Part shown: piece after piece, positions 441-6,469 of the stretch | Layout: each line of letters opens with the position of its first letter | Numbering within the stretch: the stretch's first letter is position 1 | Source of the DNA: an uncultured Candidatus Sumerlaeota bacterium | GTDB taxonomy: Bacteria > Sumerlaeota > Sumerlaeia > SLMS01 | Assembly (NCBI GenBank): GCA_964420455.1 | Contig: CAYQTO010000007.1 | Location: 1-56,419 of the forward strand | DNA: 56,419 bases | Reading direction: 5' to 3' | The notes under the pieces: generated by a model | Told to the model about the DNA's origin: nothing | Seen by the model: the letters and a program-made list of their open reading frames with translations, nothing else | Database searches by the model: none | Made by a program: the position numbers and the translations under genes

Positions 441-836
441 ATGGCCATTCGTGCGATCTACGAGAATGGAGTGTTCCGGCCGCTGGATGACGTCCCTCTT
501 GCGGAGAAGACGGAAGTCCTCGTGGAGGCGGTGGAGGGCCGCCCCCGATCGCGCGAGGCTTTGCTGGCAGTGATTCGGGCGGAGTTGCCGCGGCTGCGCG
601 AGCGCCACCATGTTTCACGGCTGATTCTCTTCGGCTCGGGAGCGCGCGACGAACTCACTGCCGAAAGCGATGTCGATTTCGCTGTTGAGTTGGATGAAGA
701 CGGTACATTCGAGGATCTCGTCGATGTCGCCGGGGAGTTGACGCTTCTCCTCGGTCGGTCGGCGGATGTGGTTTCGCTCCGAAATCTGAAGCCGGGCATC
801 CGCGCAGCTGTAGATCAGGAGGGCCTCACCCTATGA
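441..836 (+). CDS. mntA: minimal nucleotidyltransferase antitoxin (MntA-like) with an N-terminal DUF104-like segment
   Basis: LFGSGARDE...SDVDFAV matches the GSX(n)DXD minimal NTase motif. N-terminal AIYENGVFRPLD resembles DUF104 antitoxin-type domains. The stop overlaps the next start (ATGA at 833-836). Confidence 0.75.
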   Translation: MAIRAIYENGVFRPLDDVPLAEKTEVLVEAVEGRPRSREALLAVIRAELPRLRERHHVSRLILFGSGARDELTAESDVDFAVELDEDGTFEDLVDVAGELTLLLGRSADVVSLRNLKPGIRAAVDQEGLTL

Positions 837-1210
837 GGGCACGACGCTGGTCGGACTGCGTCCAGCCTCTCGAGGACATGAAGGCAACCATTTCCAAGAC
901 CATGGAACTTCTTGAGGGGGCCGCCGAAGACTGGTGGGAGTCCGAGGAGATGCGGCGATTGGCCATTCTCCATCTCGTCCAGGTGGTGGGTGAAGCAGCT
1001 CGCCGCGTCCCCTCGCCCGCTCGTGAATTGGCCCCGGGCATTCCCTGGAACCGCATCGTGGGAATCAGAAGCTTCATCGTTCATGAGTACGACCAGCTTG
1101 ATCCAATGATTCTCAAGGATGTTGTTACAAACCGGTTTCCGGCCCTCCTCGGGCAGATCGATGCCTTGCTTGCGGTCGTGAGGGAGCGCGGTGAGGGGCC
1201 TCTCTCCTAG
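833..1210 (+). CDS. hepT: HEPN-domain toxin, DUF86/HepT family
   Basis: 125 aa. RSFIVHEY is the Rx4H HEPN catalytic motif. Translationally coupled to the upstream NTase gene, the classic MNT-HEPN pair arrangement. Confidence 0.8.
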   Translation: MRARRWSDCVQPLEDMKATISKTMELLEGAAEDWWESEEMRRLAILHLVQVVGEAARRVPSPARELAPGIPWNRIVGIRSFIVHEYDQLDPMILKDVVTNRFPALLGQIDALLAVVRERGEGPLS

Positions 1211-1463: not shown

Positions 1464-1838
1464 ATGCTTTGGCTCGCCGACGTCGTCGCCCTGCTTGTTG
1501 GTCTGACGTGTCTGTTTGCCGCGGGGAGCCTCTGGCGGGATCTGAGGCGGCGCTCCGCGAGGGCCGCGGGCGAGGTGGTGGGGCGGGAGTATGTCGACGG
1601 GGACCGTCACGACAGGGTGCGGTTTCGAACGGCGACCGGCGAGGAGCAGGACTTTGTGGAGGAGATTCGGGGGATATGGAAGCGCGAGGTCGGCTCGCGG
1701 GTCCGCGTGCGGTATTGCCCGACGCGACCGGAGGACGCCTCGGTAATCGATCCCGTAAACGCGCTCCGTGTTCCGGGCCTGCTGGTCGCGGGGATTGTCT
1801 TCGCGGCGGCGGGAATTCTCCGGCTGGCGATGGGGTAG
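1464..1838 (+). CDS. DUF3592-like two-TM membrane protein
   Basis: 124 aa. An N-terminal and a C-terminal hydrophobic helix flank a soluble beta-rich core (VVGREYVDGDRHDRVRFRTATGEEQDF...VRVRYCP), the typical DUF3592 layout. High-GC native codon usage. Confidence 0.5.
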   Translation: MLWLADVVALLVGLTCLFAAGSLWRDLRRRSARAAGEVVGREYVDGDRHDRVRFRTATGEEQDFVEEIRGIWKREVGSRVRVRYCPTRPEDASVIDPVNALRVPGLLVAGIVFAAAGILRLAMG

Positions 1839-1847
1839 GGGGGGATA

Positions 1848-2672
1848 ATGGGTTTGGTGAGATTCCTTCGTTTTCTGGTCGCGCTGTTTTTCGATCCCAA
1901 AAGTGCCAAAGGGATTCTTGGCGAGTTTCGGACGACTGCTGCTCTTCGACGGTCACTCGATAATAGTGTGTATAGGCAAATCGATAATGTGACACTCCTG
2001 ATGGACGATGGGACGACGCAAATTGACCATGTGATTGTCTCCCCTTACGGGGTTTTCGTGATCGAGACCAAGAATATGACTGGCTGGATTTTCGGATCAG
2101 AGCGACAGGCAACTTGGACCCAGGTGTTGGGTCGCCAAAAAAACACCTTTCAGAACCCACTGAGGCAGAATTACAGGCATGTCTGGGCACTCTCTGAAGT
2201 CCTTGGAATACCGAAAGAGGCACTGATCTCGATTGTCATCTTTGCGGGCTCAGCAGAGTTCAAGACGGAGATGCCTTCAAATATCGTTAAAATCCGTGGT
2301 GCCGTGCGATTGATCAAGTCATACACGACTCCGATCTTCACGGAATCGGAGATCGTTGGATTTTTGGCAACCTTGGAACAATCCCGAATGAAGGAAGGGT
2401 GCCAAACGGACCGGGAGCATTTGGCTAGCCTGCGGAAAAGGCACGGGTCGGACCGTGAAGTGGAAAAGGTGGGGATGGCAAGAGCTCAGAGCGGAGGAGC
2501 AGAGATCGAAAAAGCGAATGAGGAGCTCGCGAACCCCGATCTGGTGATTTGCCCGATCTGTGGTGCGCCGATGGTAATGAGAAATGCAAGAAGGGGGGAC
2601 CGGGCGGGGAAGAACTTCTGGGGTTGCAGTAGGTTTCCGAAGTGCCGGGGAACCCGTAGCGAGGACAAGTAG
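1848..2672 (+). CDS. NERD-domain nuclease-like protein with C-terminal topoisomerase-type C4 zinc finger
   Basis: IDHVIVSPYGVFVIETKNMTGWIFG matches the NERD D...ExK core. C-terminal CPICGAPMV...FWGCSRFPKCRGT is a topo-IA-type zinc ribbon. GC drops sharply at the start codon, which lies 9 nt after the upstream stop. Confidence 0.8.
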   Translation: MGLVRFLRFLVALFFDPKSAKGILGEFRTTAALRRSLDNSVYRQIDNVTLLMDDGTTQIDHVIVSPYGVFVIETKNMTGWIFGSERQATWTQVLGRQKNTFQNPLRQNYRHVWALSEVLGIPKEALISIVIFAGSAEFKTEMPSNIVKIRGAVRLIKSYTTPIFTESEIVGFLATLEQSRMKEGCQTDREHLASLRKRHGSDREVEKVGMARAQSGGAEIEKANEELANPDLVICPICGAPMVMRNARRGDRAGKNFWGCSRFPKCRGTRSEDK

Positions 2673-2772
2673 TTCCCGATACCCGTTGCTATTTCTTTAT
2701 TCGGCAAGAAGCAAATCGTTGTTCGTCAAAATGGTTGGGCATCCCAGGGGGTGCTGATTTGTCGGGGCGGCC

Positions 2773-2811
2773 TTAAATCCTTACTACACAATGGATGCGT
2801 TGAGGATTTAA
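2773..2811. terminator. inverted repeat between the convergent islet genes (possible bidirectional terminator)
   Basis: TTAAATCCT (2773-2781) pairs with AGGATTTAA (2803-2811). It is a perfect 9-bp stem with a 21-nt loop, in the 203-nt gap between two convergent stops. No clear U-tract. Confidence 0.3.
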
Positions 2812-2875
2812 AGAATATCGCTTCCTTAAAGGTGGCTGCTAGTCGTTCATAGCCATTCCCCCAATCATCGCTCTC

Positions 2876-3826
2876 CTAATAAATCCCGATAGCCAGCCTT
2901 TTGCGGCCAGAAGCCTTTATTGAATTAATGATGTGCTCATCGTGCTCCTTGCTCAAGCTGTGCCCCAGGATTACCAAAGGGTCCTCGGACTCGCGGAACA
3001 ATCTATTGACGTATGTGAGATATTTGGAGTTTCCGATCGACGCCTGTTTCGATGCCGGAGTGCCTTCTGAAACAATTAGTGGGTATTTGCGCCGGTGGTA
3101 GGGTGTGCTGGTTTCAATTTCGCCTTTTGTGTAGTGATTTTTGATAGTATCTAGTATTGTTTGTGCCTCGTTGCCCGTTATTTTGCGTTCAATGGGCTCG
3201 CCGCTGACTTTGTCGTGGTCTTTGCACAAGAATATGGCGCCATGCAGATAGCAGACGAAGTCTCTCACTGAAGGGAATACTTCGTCTTCGCAAAAGGGTT
3301 TTCCAAAAAAAAAGTCAACATGCGGTCGCTTAAGCATCATCAACGCCCAGTACACAAGTGCGTCGTAGTTGGTGGTGTAAATATGGTGATACTCGCTGAG
3401 TGCATCAGAAAAGGTCTTTATGTTTTCAGAGATGTCGGCGTGTCTTGGGTGTATGGCGATGATTGAGTCGATTAGCCCCTCCCTGATGCGGTCCCTTGCC
3501 TGCACGATTTGCTCCCCTATGTATTCTTTTGCGGCCCTGATTTGCTTATTGAGGGCCTTCTGGTTAAACGTATCAAGAACGGAAGCCGCTGTTTCGAGGC
3601 TTGAAAGGACTCTTTCGAAGTTCCCGGTTCCTCCGAATTTCTCGAACAATGAGTTTGTGGGCAGCTTTTGTTCGTTTGGGTTCCCATTTGGGTTCCATTT
3701 ATGGTATAGGCTTCTATACGTAAAATCGGAGCAAAGGTTGATGCTTACACCATTGCCGATAAGAATACTGGTCCAATCTCCCATCTTGTGAACCTCATTC
3801 CAATCAAGTAGGGGAGGATACGTCAT
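2876..3826 (-). CDS. SIR2-superfamily protein, DUF4917-like (candidate NAD-consuming effector)
   Basis: 316 aa. N-terminal ILIGNGVSIN glycine loop, IYTTNYDALVYW (the TNYD motif of SIR2_2/DUF4917 proteins), CYLHGAI (the LHG His motif), and later PLIVSEGT and VILGHSLSKEHDEHI. Low GC. Starts 6 nt after the moeA stop on the same strand. Confidence 0.6.
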   Translation of the reverse strand: MTYPPLLDWNEVHKMGDWTSILIGNGVSINLCSDFTYRSLYHKWNPNGNPNEQKLPTNSLFEKFGGTGNFERVLSSLETAASVLDTFNQKALNKQIRAAKEYIGEQIVQARDRIREGLIDSIIAIHPRHADISENIKTFSDALSEYHHIYTTNYDALVYWALMMLKRPHVDFFFGKPFCEDEVFPSVRDFVCYLHGAIFLCKDHDKVSGEPIERKITGNEAQTILDTIKNHYTKGEIETSTPYHRRKYPLIVSEGTPASKQASIGNSKYLTYVNRLFRESEDPLVILGHSLSKEHDEHIINSIKASGRKRLAIGIY

Positions 3827-3832
3827 GTTGTT

Positions 3833-5062
3833 CTACCCCACAACCCCGAGGCCTCTGAGGATCGGGTGAACGAGGATTTCGGTGCCGGCCTCGAGGGGGT
3901 CGGGGCCGGGGGGGGCGAGGGCCAGGGCGTTGCTCCTCGCCGGGTTGAGCAGGTTCGCGCTGTTCTGGTTGTCGTAGGGGTGGGCGAAGAGCGCGCCGTC
4001 CTCGACCACGAGGCGTGTATAGACAAAGAAAAGGCGGTCCGGGTCGCGGGGGCAGTCGACGGCGAGGTGGGCGCGGAGGGTGGGGGCGTGGGCGGGCTCG
4101 ATGCCGTAGCACCGCCGGAGGAAGGGTTTGAGGAAGATCTCGGCGTTGCAGATGGTGGAGACCGGGTTGCCGGGGAAGCCGAAGTGGGGGGTGCCGTTGA
4201 TGGTGGCAAGGAGCATGGGCTTGCCGGGGCGGACGCGGACTCTCCAGAAGTGGATGGTGGCGCCGAGTTGTTCGAGGGCGCGGCCGACGACGTCGTGTTC
4301 GCCGACGGAGACGCCGGCGGTGGTGACGGCGATGTCGCACCAGTCGAGCATTTCGGCGAAGCGTTTGCGGAAGTCGGCGGGGTCGTCGTGGGCGATGCCG
4401 AAGAGGTGGGGCTCGCAGGCGCAGTCGCGGAGGGTCTGCTCGAGGTAGTAGAGGCTGGAGCCGATGATCTGGCTGCCGATGGGGGATTGGCCGTGGGCGA
4501 GGATTTCGTCGCCGCTGGTGAGGATGCCGACGCGCAGGGGGCGGTAGACGTTGAGGGTGGGGAGGTTGAAGCTGGCGAGGAAGGAGAGGACCTCGGGGGT
4601 GATGGGGGTGCCGGGGGGGAAGAGGGGGGCGTCGTGCTGGACGTCGGAGCCATGGCGGCGGACGTTTTGGCGTTGGGCGGGGGGGGAGGTGAAGACGACC
4701 CAGTCGTCCTCGCGGCGGACGGCCTCGAAGGGGACGACGGCGTCGGCGCCGGCGGGGAGGCGGGCGCCGGTGCTGATGCGGACGGTTTCGCCCGGTTCGA
4801 GGGGGTGCTCGTAGGCGTGGCCGGCGGCGCTTTCGCCGGCGATGGCGAGGAAGTCCGGGGTGGTGCTGCTGGCGGAGGCCAGATCGCCGGCGCGGACCGC
4901 GTAGCCGTCCATGGCGGAGTTGTCAAATCGGGGCATCGCCCAGGGGGCGCGGGCGGATTCGGCGAGGATGCGTCCGGCGGCCTTCAGGAGCGGGACGCGC
5001 TCGCTGGTGGGGGGCTTGGCCAGGGCCAGGATGCGCTCGAGCGCAACTCCGTAATCGATCAT
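3833..5062 (-). CDS. moeA: molybdopterin molybdenumtransferase MoeA
   Basis: 409 aa. FDNSAMDGYAV motif and typical MoeA domain order and length. Confidence 0.9.
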   Translation of the reverse strand: MIDYGVALERILALAKPPTSERVPLLKAAGRILAESARAPWAMPRFDNSAMDGYAVRAGDLASASSTTPDFLAIAGESAAGHAYEHPLEPGETVRISTGARLPAGADAVVPFEAVRREDDWVVFTSPPAQRQNVRRHGSDVQHDAPLFPPGTPITPEVLSFLASFNLPTLNVYRPLRVGILTSGDEILAHGQSPIGSQIIGSSLYYLEQTLRDCACEPHLFGIAHDDPADFRKRFAEMLDWCDIAVTTAGVSVGEHDVVGRALEQLGATIHFWRVRVRPGKPMLLATINGTPHFGFPGNPVSTICNAEIFLKPFLRRCYGIEPAHAPTLRAHLAVDCPRDPDRLFFVYTRLVVEDGALFAHPYDNQNSANLLNPARSNALALAPPGPDPLEAGTEILVHPILRGLGVVG

Positions 5063-5086: not shown

Positions 5087-6469
5087 ATGGGGACGTGGCC
5101 GGACACACTCGCCGCAACCCGACGCTTGGAGTCAACCGCGCCCGTGTTTGATGACGTCCCCACTTATCCCTTGGACCGCCCGGCGGTCCGCCCCCTCGAG
5201 GTGATCCCCATCCGCGCCCAGGAGCAGAACATGCTCATGGTTCGCGATCCGCTGGGGTTGATCGAGGGGGTGGCGCTGCTCCCGCCGGACCCGATGCTGC
5301 TGATGTTCCTCCAGATGGCCGACGGCAAGACCACAACCGGCGAGATGGCCCACCGCGTGACCCAGCTCTCGGGGCAGATCATCCCGGCGGGCATGTTCGA
5401 CAGCATGGTGCAGCAGCTGGACGAGGCGTTGCTGCTCCAGAGCGAGCGCTTCGTGGAGGCGCTGCGCAAGAAGTACGAGGATTTCATGGCGAGCCCAACG
5501 CGTCCGTACCGGGTGTTCCGGATGGATGGCCAGGACCGGCTGGCGATGATGAAGGAGCTGGGGGACGAATTCCGGCGCCACCGGATGAGCAGCCTGTCGC
5601 CGCCGGAGCGGCTCGACCTGCCGGCGAGGAGCGTGCAGGCGATCCTCTCGCCGCATATCGATTACCAGCGCGGGGGCGAGGTGTACGCCTGGGCCTACAA
5701 GGCGCTGAAGGAGCACGGGACGGGGGCGCGGACCCTCGTGGTGCTGGGAACGTCGCACCGGCCGACGAGCCACCGCTTTGTGGCCACGGCGAAGGACTAC
5801 GACACGCCGCTCGGCACCGTCGGGACGGACAAGGAACTGCTCGAGGAATTGCGCGAGGCGTTCGATGGCGAGCTGTGGCAGGATGAGTACATCCATGCGG
5901 ACGAGCACGCGATCGAGCTGCAGGCGATGTACCTCAAGCACATGTTTGGGGACGAGTGTCCGCGGATTGTGCCGATCCTGGTGGGCAGCTTCGACGACTA
6001 CCTGGAGGACGGCACCGGCCCGAAGGACGACGAGGAGATCCAGGCCTTCATCAAGGCGTTGCGGTCGGTGCTGGACAAGCACGGCAACGCGGTGGGGGTG
6101 ATCGGCGGGGTGGACTTTTCGCACTGCGGGCCGGAGTTCGGCCACGAGGAGCTGAACGAGGACGAGCGGGTGAAGGAGATCGAGGATTCGGACCGGGCGG
6201 TTCTCGACGCGATCGAGGCGGGCGACCCGGATGCCTTCTTCGACGTGTTCCGCAAGGACGGCAACGGGACCAACGTTTGCAGCATTGCGCCGATCTACTG
6301 CGTGATGGCGGCGATGCGCGACCGGGCGAAGGCGCGGGTGCTGAAGTACAACAAGGACAATTCGCCGGACAAGACGTGCCTGGTGAGCTTTGCGAGCGTG
6401 GCCTACTTGGACAAGGACGTCGCGGACACGGGCGGGGGCGCGCCAAAGATCATCCTGGTCAGCCGCTGA
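5087..6469 (+). CDS. MEMO1 / AmmeMemoRadiSam system protein B family, with a ~135-aa N-terminal extension
   Basis: SPHIDYQRGG, VVLGTSH, HAIELQAMYL and GGVDFSHCG are the Memo-family metal-site motifs. The 3866-5086 part of the tracked ORF is antisense to moeA and is rejected. The first in-frame ATG after moeA is 5087, so the start is uncertain. Confidence 0.8.
   Translation: MGTWPDTLAATRRLESTAPVFDDVPTYPLDRPAVRPLEVIPIRAQEQNMLMVRDPLGLIEGVALLPPDPMLLMFLQMADGKTTTGEMAHRVTQLSGQIIPAGMFDSMVQQLDEALLLQSERFVEALRKKYEDFMASPTRPYRVFRMDGQDRLAMMKELGDEFRRHRMSSLSPPERLDLPARSVQAILSPHIDYQRGGEVYAWAYKALKEHGTGARTLVVLGTSHRPTSHRFVATAKDYDTPLGTVGTDKELLEELREAFDGELWQDEYIHADEHAIELQAMYLKHMFGDECPRIVPILVGSFDDYLEDGTGPKDDEEIQAFIKALRSVLDKHGNAVGVIGGVDFSHCGPEFGHEELNEDERVKEIEDSDRAVLDAIEAGDPDAFFDVFRKDGNGTNVCSIAPIYCVMAAMRDRAKARVLKYNKDNSPDKTCLVSFASVAYLDKDVADTGGGAPKIILVSR

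Follow-up and report, generated by a model that had tools for sequence, protein, structure and literature searches.

A probably acquired low-GC islet beside moeA of an uncultured Sumerlaeota bacterium holds a NERD/zinc-ribbon gene and an apparently truncated DUF4917 gene

Results

A low-GC islet lies between two native stop codons

The DNA analysed here, in the following called the window, comprises 56,419 nucleotides (nt) of contig CAYQTO010000007.1 (assembly GCA_964420455.1) from an uncultured Candidatus Sumerlaeota bacterium. Near its left end, between a gene for a DUF3592 protein and moeA, an islet of low guanine plus cytosine (GC) content contains two genes, which code for a NERD-domain protein with a zinc ribbon and for a SIR2-like protein of the family DUF4917. 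The GC content of positions 1848-3832 is 49%; for 1839-3832 it is 0.491, compared to 0.660 ± 0.024 in the other 1-kb windows of the contig (z = -7). Within the 56 kb, the islet 1839-3832 is the sole stretch with a value below 0.58, and the other 1-kb windows never fall below 0.595. In windows of 200 nt, the GC content is 0.62-0.71 at positions 1201-1900, 0.44-0.58 at 1801-3800, and 0.67-0.73 from 3801 on. For the individual genes, the GC content and the GC content at third codon positions (GC3) are 0.521 and 0.60 (NERD gene), 0.469 and 0.565 (DUF4917 gene), 0.683 and 0.81 (DUF3592 gene), and 0.704 and 0.92 (moeA). A first-pass annotation, made from the sequence alone, had described a drop to 43-50% with sharp borders. 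The drop and its borders at two stop codons were recovered; the range is slightly low for the NERD gene (0.521).

The two open reading frames (ORFs) of the islet are convergent: one occupies 1848-2672 on the plus strand and codes for 274 amino acids (aa), the other occupies 2876-3826 on the minus strand and codes for 316 aa. At the left junction, 9 nt (GGGGGGATA) separate the TAG of the DUF3592 gene (1836-1838) from the ATG at 1848. At the right junction, on the minus strand, the ATG of the DUF4917 ORF (3826-3824) is 6 nt away from the TAG of moeA (3833-3835). The ORF map and the junction sequences thus agree with the first-pass annotation, which had described a convergent gene pair at distances of 9 nt and 6 nt from the native stop codons. 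The best homologues of both islet proteins are distant (35% identity for the DUF4917 protein, 48% for the NERD protein) and stem from other phyla. With its atypical composition and its sharp borders, the islet is most likely foreign, horizontally acquired DNA.

The minus-strand gene codes for a SIR2-like DUF4917 protein

The 316-aa ORF (2876-3826, minus strand) was identified by means of Pfam, PADLOC and Foldseek as the N-terminal 86% of a SIR2-like gene of the family DUF4917/PDC-S21. The DUF4917 profile (PF16263) matches with 137.5 bits (E 8.5e-40; gathering score 28) and is covered from position 1 to position 276 of 311. Pfam SIR2_2 gives 22.6 bits (E 1.3e-4), which is slightly under its gathering score of 24.5. 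In PADLOC, the protein matches PDC-S21 (7.5e-66) and, weakly, several SIR2 models. The first-pass annotation had presented the gene without a catalogue entry; PADLOC already lists PDC-S21 as a single-gene candidate. The motifs G24-N25-G26-x-S28, T151-T152-N153-Y154-D155 and H195-G196 are present and, apart from T151, family-invariant; the 316-aa part retains each of the 21 residues that are invariant in the family alignment. We take the GNG, TNYD and HG motifs to be the counterparts of the NAD loop, the catalytic Asn/Asp and the His of sirtuins.

An AlphaFold2 (AF2) model of the 316-aa protein reached a predicted local distance difference test score (pLDDT) of 77.7 and a predicted template modelling score (pTM) of 0.78. 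A Foldseek search of this model against the PDB returned the SIR2 subunit of E. coli SIR2-HerA as the top match (E 2e-7, template modelling (TM) score ~0.5), followed by DSR2, KomC, SPARSA and SIRT1. The AlphaFold model of P0007, a full-length homologue (pLDDT 88, pTM 0.87), retrieved the same SIR2 set with E 2e-10 and TM scores of 0.55-0.63, with SIRT1 far behind. In addition, the family profile matches SIR2-like chains of the PDB (8w9l, 5e-6; 8j4u, 0.011), and in the profile alignment TTNYD corresponds to FTTNYDLL and LHG to LHGS of the SIR2 protein of SIR2-HerA. By predicted fold and motifs, the 316-aa protein is a member of the SIR2 superfamily. The SIR2/DUF4917 assignment of the first-pass annotation, which had named the GNG, TTNYD and LHG motifs, is therefore in line with domain searches and the structure model. 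Its tacit assumption that the 316 residues are the whole gene product did not hold, as they end at an in-frame TAG.

A word-indexed search yielded 22 relatives of the DUF4917 protein with at most 35% identity, and a pattern scan of GTDB genomes yielded more than 570; they are spread over more than 10 phyla. Family members normally consist of 325-370 aa. The islet protein carries two lineage-specific insertions. A 302-aa gene call in the databases starts at Met15 behind a Shine-Dalgarno-like GAGG (region 3782-3826). This call was rejected and the start at 3826 was preferred because the family-conserved LLDWNEV is located upstream of Met15; no obvious ribosome-binding site precedes the start codon at 3826.

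A premature TAG appears to have cut off the 3' end of the DUF4917 gene

In the alignment of homologues, the 316-aa protein ends approximately 40 residues early and is devoid of the consensus end FFDAxTHPLG. The ORF stops at an in-frame TAG (amber; 2876-2878, minus strand), which is codon 317 of a presumed ancestral frame of 365 codons. Translation in the same frame beyond this TAG gives ESDDWGNGYERLAATFKEAIFFKSSTHPLCSKDLRPPRQISTPWDAQPF and ends at the TGA 2726-2728. The cut-off 3' remnant (2726-2875, minus strand) still carries 49 codons in frame (ESDDW...IFFKSSTHPLCSKDL...), closed by the original TGA. A profile deduced exclusively from homologues runs colinearly through the TAG to position 334 of 338 and scores 262.7 bits, versus 243.3 bits for the 316-aa ORF (+19). 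If the remnant is counted, the ancestral intergenic spacer between the convergent genes is 2673-2725, and the real gap is 53 nt rather than 203 nt.

The C-terminal segment is kept in 128 of the 131 relatives from genomes and viral contigs, and two of the three sequences without it (L134, L059) are themselves truncated or split. In the model of P0007, the part that corresponds to the remnant forms a helix (307-320) and a strand (325-330) with pLDDT values of 93-96, both of which are elements of the core sheet. The TAG codon is a working stop in this contig, as it ends the DUF3592 gene, moeA and 3 of 18 native-like ORFs. Judged from the sequence, the 316-aa ORF is a truncated gene whose ancestral 365-codon frame is interrupted by one nonsense codon. 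With the TAG in place, the product loses one helix and one strand of the core together with the conserved FFxxxTHPL motif; the DUF4917 copy of the islet is therefore most likely inactive or decaying.

Recoding of TAG by pyrrolysine insertion or suppression was considered and rejected, as TAG terminates the neighbouring native genes. A search of the window for transfer RNA (tRNA) and transfer-messenger RNA (tmRNA) genes found none, hence there is no suppressor or pyrrolysine tRNA in the window.

The disrupted DUF4917 copies elsewhere are located at 9974-11041 of L059 and at 2811-3698 of L134; one is split into 172 + 119 aa, and the other breaks off at profile position 280. Occasional decay of DUF4917 genes is therefore not peculiar to the window. 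Within the coding sequence of the remnant, positions 2773-2815 contain a perfect inverted repeat of 10 bp (TTAAATCCTT / AAGGATTTAA), which covers the codons for FKSSTHPLCSKDL. The corresponding hairpin has a folding energy of -18.6 kcal/mol on the minus strand (z = -2.7). It is probably incidental, and it could now serve as the terminator of the truncated gene.

The plus-strand gene codes for a NERD protein with a zinc ribbon

The 274-aa protein encoded at 1848-2672 (plus strand) combines a NERD domain (PF08378; 104.8 bits, cutoff 22.1; E 4.7e-30) with a C4 zinc ribbon of the Top1 type (Zn_ribbon_Top1, PF01396; 40.5 bits, cutoff 32; E 2.3e-10). All 51 invariant columns of the family are kept, among them D60, E73-T-K75 and the cysteines C235, C238, C260 and C266. 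These Pfam matches and invariant residues bear out the NERD protein with an ExK core and a topoisomerase-type C4 zinc ribbon that the first-pass annotation had seen. From its sequence, the gene looks intact. The profile of the NERD-zinc-ribbon family also matches the zinc ribbon of human TOP3A (4cgy) with E 0.0027. By homology, the Top1-type ribbon probably binds nucleic acid, which the PD-(D/E)xK core of the NERD domain would cleave.

More than 7,000 homologues with this architecture were found, the best of which is 48% identical; many are from Aeromonas and methanotrophic Gammaproteobacteria. With its short N-terminus, which is devoid of the hydrophobic leader of most members, the islet protein falls into a minority subgroup. 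In architecture and length it corresponds to the stand-alone NERD + Zn_ribbon_Top1 proteins that are annotated as 'NERD domain-containing protein' and are labelled 'restriction system protein' by the JGI. This family is uncharacterised and is not a named defence system. PADLOC has no model for the combination of NERD and zinc ribbon, and gave a weak match at the level of the domain to the NERD domain of PglW. A NERD-containing RNA endonuclease acting as a stand-alone effector against RNA phages, ZwsA (Zowangsin), has been reported (bioRxiv 10.64898/2026.04.06.716636). Common to ZwsA and the islet protein is the NERD catalytic domain; ZwsA has the architecture VHS-DUF647-NERD-S4 and is devoid of a Top1 zinc ribbon, whereas the islet protein consists of NERD and ribbon.

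The two genes are not regularly found together

At the loci of DUF4917 relatives, a profile search detected an adjacent NERD-zinc-ribbon gene in 1 of 80 genome loci (L040) and in 0 of 51 viral contigs, which is 1 of 131 together. In the reverse direction, a profile search for DUF4917 beside NERD-zinc-ribbon genes found none at 80 metagenome loci, many of them on short contigs, and none at 2 further loci. An all-against-all clustering of the ORFs within ±4 kb of the 80 DUF4917 loci found no partner conserved across phyla; it gave just shadow ORFs and Pseudomonas-specific synteny. The recurrence expected of a two-gene system of NERD and DUF4917, which the first-pass annotation had considered, is thus absent (1/131 and 0/82 loci). 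The lack of co-occurrence agrees with its fallback that the two genes are independent single-gene units.

The single adjacent pair is found in Shewanella jiangmenensis (L040, 9974-12166), where the DUF4917 and the NERD-zinc-ribbon gene are arranged in tandem at a distance of ~400 nt. The former lies in a patch with a GC content of 0.40, and the NERD gene has a host-like value of 0.47-0.54. This contrast indicates that the two genes of L040 arrived separately. Their adjacency may be a coincidence or reflect a preferred landing site. In the islet, the two genes converge and for this reason cannot be one operon.

Both families keep varied company, and neither of them has a partner that is conserved. 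The 115 immediate neighbours of DUF4917 genes match 108 different Pfam families and include integrases, transposases, components of toxin-antitoxin systems and of type I restriction-modification, Shedu, DISARM-like helicases and PD-Lambda-1. In 5 loci, at a position of ~10 kb each, DUF4917 is located directly between or beside Hma genes: L005 and L028 have HmaA upstream; L024, L048 and L053 have HmaB downstream, accompanied or not by HmaC; and the ORF boundaries abut in L024 and L053. A type I restriction enzyme gene directly adjoins DUF4917 in L042. Relatives were further found on 35 plasmid records and on 51 IMG/VR viral contigs. The PDC set of PADLOC consists of 145 candidates that were derived from their embedding inside defence systems (bioRxiv 10.1101/2024.01.29.577857). 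The position of DUF4917 within Hma and type I loci is the same 'guilt-by-embedding' pattern that nominated these candidates.

The neighbours of NERD-zinc-ribbon genes are similarly diverse and comprise TraC/DUF1525 genes of conjugative elements, Fic/SoFic, methyltransferases, BglII, HNH, UvrD-type helicases, transposases, restriction-modification and also housekeeping genes. Two loci that were inspected look like defence islands. Both families are thus drawn from the gene pool of mobile elements and defence islands, with varied contexts. In marine metagenomes, several NERD-zinc-ribbon genes (L146, L154, L158, L164 and others of L138-L217) are flanked by TraC_F_IV and DUF1525, locus assignments that were deduced from ORF sizes. 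Flanks of this kind are typical of integrative conjugative elements, so part of the family evidently travels on them.

Expression

The gaps of just 9 nt and 6 nt upstream of the islet genes leave no room for promoters of their own, as the first-pass annotation had pointed out. Within the islet, no sigma-70-like site was found, and terminator-like matches were at the level expected from shuffled sequences. The spacer 2673-2725 was searched for a convincing terminator; none was found, its folding z-scores are +0.7 and +0.2, and it contains no terminator-like site. Considering the short gaps and the missing sigma-70-like site, the simplest inference from the sequence is that the islet genes would be expressed by read-through from DUF3592 and moeA. 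Promoters may instead be located within the upstream coding regions.

Flanking genes and presumed site of insertion

The left flank is the gene of a DUF3592 membrane protein (1464-1838, plus strand; Pfam 1.1e-5), which has native composition and ends with the TAG 1836-1838. The right flank is moeA, coding for a molybdopterin molybdotransferase (3833-5062, minus strand; Pfam MoeA_N, MoCF_biosynth and MoeA_C; NCBIfam MoeA 3.1e-86). It lies next to a divergently oriented Memo-like gene (~5600-6469; 6.1e-39), as in relatives; L002, L004 and L218 likewise contain Memo-moeA. The nearest relatives of MoeA are from Candidatus Sumerlaeota/Sumerlaeia and share 50-58% identity; among 5.8 billion proteins, none exceeds 58%. 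The organism is therefore without a close sequenced relative.

Farther to the left, a gene pair codes for an MntA-like nucleotidyltransferase antitoxin (441-836, plus strand; Polbeta 1.1e-12, NTP_transf_2 2.7e-9, PADLOC PDC-S09 3.7e-21) and a HepT-like RNase toxin (833-1210, plus strand; Pfam HepT-like 7.5e-17), whose ORF overlaps the MntA stop by 4 nt. The Pfam domains and this overlap at 441-1210 substantiate the MntA/HepT pair that had been annotated upstream of the islet. The NCBIfam scores are both under the cutoff of 60 bits (MntA_antitoxin 54.9 bits, HepT_toxin 24.4 bits), so membership in the MntA/HepT type VII systems is given at the domain level only. The MntA-like protein contains an N-terminal AF2212-like domain (residues 2-35, 1.4e-10), which is an unusual fusion for an MntA/HepT pair.

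In the loci of the nearest usable MoeA relatives (L001-L004, L218 and L219), a Metallophos gene, a transporter gene or an unknown gene lies downstream of moeA, and none of these loci contains DUF3592 or the islet. Replacement of a terminator by the islet, which the first-pass annotation had suggested along with read-through from both sides, is conjectural, as no locus with an empty site was found among these relatives. The synteny with the Memo-moeA loci L002, L004 and L218 stops exactly at the moeA stop codon. From moeA leftwards to the contig end, the genes are non-syntenic (DUF4870, MntA/HepT, DUF3592, islet), and the GC3 of MntA/HepT is slightly low (0.68-0.71). For these two reasons, the variable region may exceed the low-GC islet. 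The left 3.8 kb, which contain MntA/HepT, NERD and DUF4917 and abut the contig end, resemble a small variable or defence region.

The borders of the islet are marked by a direct repeat of 13 nt, whose left copy (GTAGGGGGGGATA) is located at 1835-1847 and whose right copy (GTAGGGGAGGATA) is located at 3808-3820, within the DUF4917 ORF and 4-16 nt from its 5' end. Twelve of the 13 positions match; a match of this kind between the two border windows was obtained not once in 5000 shuffles, compared to 23 of 5000 (0.5%) random pairs of native windows. The repeat points to a single insertion, brought about by target duplication or by microhomology. The islet was also inspected for an integrase, a transposase, a tRNA and terminal inverted repeats, and none of these features was found. 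Integration at a tRNA or att-type site was rejected, as the window contains no tRNA, tmRNA or Rfam family.

Discussion

Our results are best explained by an acquired insert of ~2 kb between convergent native genes, which carries two unrelated stand-alone genes, one of them a truncated DUF4917 copy, and which does not constitute a new defence system. We assign a probability of about 0.7 to this reading as a whole. It implies the following course of events. A foreign insert of ~2 kb would have lodged between the 3' ends of the convergent genes DUF3592 and moeA. The NERD-zinc-ribbon protein would bind nucleic acid by means of its ribbon and cleave it with the core residues D60, E73 and K75. An intact DUF4917 protein, encoded by the full frame (3826-2726, minus strand), would consume nicotinamide adenine dinucleotide (NAD+) upon a trigger, and the islet copy would have lost this function by the TAG at codon 317. 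By analogy to ThsA, DSR1/2 and SIR2-HerA, such a triggered consumption of NAD+ is probably the function of intact family members.

Several points weigh against this reading. The adjacent pair of Shewanella jiangmenensis exceeds a naive random expectation. The TAG might have arisen in assembly or consensus calling, or might represent a minority allele, and the DUF4917 gene is undamaged except for one codon, so that its inactivation, if real, must be recent. Depletion of NAD+ or a block of phage by DUF4917 proteins is so far hypothetical, and PDC-S21 has the rank of a candidate; the sole studied member, SliP of C. jejuni, has been reported as a deacetylase (PMC10421069). The border repeat is short, and by our estimate ~3 such repeats are expected by chance in a region of 3.1 kb. 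Finally, an empty site was not found among the nearest MoeA relatives, which share 52-58% identity, are too distant and have other genes downstream of moeA.

That NERD-zinc-ribbon and DUF4917 form a two-gene defence system on one cassette, with a nuclease or sensor and an NAD-depleting effector, is suggested by the adjacency of two low-GC genes that are jointly bracketed by the 13-nt repeat, by the pair ~400 nt apart in L040, and by the defence-type neighbourhoods of both families. We nevertheless consider it highly improbable, since adjacency is restricted to 1 of 131 DUF4917 loci and was seen at 0 of 82 NERD loci, and since convergent genes cannot form one operon. Moreover, the L040 pair is tandem, not convergent, and differs in GC content as expected from separate arrival, and PADLOC handles PDC-S21 as a single-gene candidate. 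A more elaborate version is very improbable as well; it holds that the 1,973-bp unit between the two copies of GTAGGGG(G/A)GGATA is a cassette without promoter and integrase, captured exactly between two convergent stop codons and expressed by read-through from both host genes, whose NERD and SIR2-like proteins cooperate as a nuclease/NADase pair that also occurs in Shewanella jiangmenensis. There is likewise very little to be said for the absence of any insertion, that is, for a chimeric assembly or for native genes whose composition is atypical. The contig looks metagenome-assembled, the islet is near its left end, and an empty site for comparison is missing; however, a chimera would require two precise joins 6-9 nt from stop codons with two complete reading frames kept. 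Furthermore, both flanks have native composition, the right flank with Memo-moeA is syntenic with relatives, and both families are patchy across phyla.

The alternatives that concern the DUF4917 protein deserve more weight. The gene may still be functional if the TAG stems from sequencing or consensus calling or is polymorphic among strains, or if the 316-aa product itself is active. In favour of this, the frame has just one lesion, the 316-aa part contains the full set of 21 invariant residues, the 49 downstream codons are in frame with their motif preserved, and the truncated model folds with a pTM of 0.78. Still, this appears doubtful to us: the stop is of the substitution type and not a homopolymer indel typical of sequencing errors, the lost part is a core helix and strand of high confidence that is kept in 128 of 131 relatives, and TAG is used as a stop in the contig, with no tRNA in the window. 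We also regard it as unlikely that DUF4917 proteins are NAD+-dependent protein deacetylases, or have another role outside of defence, instead of depleting NAD+ in response to phage. For SliP, the sole characterised member, sirtuin deacetylase activity was reported (PMC10421069), and the sirtuin catalytic motifs are common to deacetylases and NADases. The structural neighbours of the family, however, are the SIR2 proteins of defence systems (SIR2-HerA, DSR2, KomC, SPARSA), with SIRT1 far behind. The family is moreover found within Hma and type I restriction-modification systems as well as on plasmids and prophage-like contigs, and sliP itself adjoins the gene of a type I restriction R-subunit.

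SliP (CJJ81176_0779 of Campylobacter jejuni) is a 'secreted sirtuin' of the same Pfam family. It was reported as a secreted, host-directed deacetylase, and the gene next to its own codes for a type I R-subunit (PMC10421069). A corresponding host-directed role in an environmental Sumerlaeota-like bacterium is implausible. With the defence SIR2 NADases (SIR2-HerA/Nezha, DSR2, ThsA, SPARSA) the islet protein shares the fold (TM ~0.5-0.63) at 14-17% identity. SIR2-HerA, Thoeris, DSR and SPARSA additionally possess HerA, ThsB/TIR, a fused sensor or long C-terminal domain, or a short prokaryotic Argonaute (pAgo), whereas the islet protein is a bare SIR2-like domain. HerA, ThsB/TIR and pAgo partners gave no PADLOC match among the five genes from the left contig end to moeA. 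The likeness to PDC-S21 consists of strong profile matches, all family-invariant residues, and a stand-alone gene without a conserved partner. The islet copy differs from PDC-S21 in that it ends at DUF4917 profile position 276 of 311, is at most 35% identical to any member, and is not embedded in a known system.

According to the favoured reading of two unrelated genes in an acquired insert, nothing at this locus is a new kind of system; a catalogued candidate family has here a divergent, damaged member, which lies beside a member of a common, uncharacterised family. The locus itself matters little, as the copy of the defence candidate that it holds is probably defective. Being a bare SIR2-fold protein that is repeatedly embedded in defence systems, DUF4917/PDC-S21 is a good target for a phage challenge combined with an NAD+ experiment. 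The islet further documents a defence-type gene at the first step of decay, which is one nonsense codon. The location of foreign genes 6-9 nt from host stop codons would, if general, bear on the question of how promoter-less defence genes become expressed.

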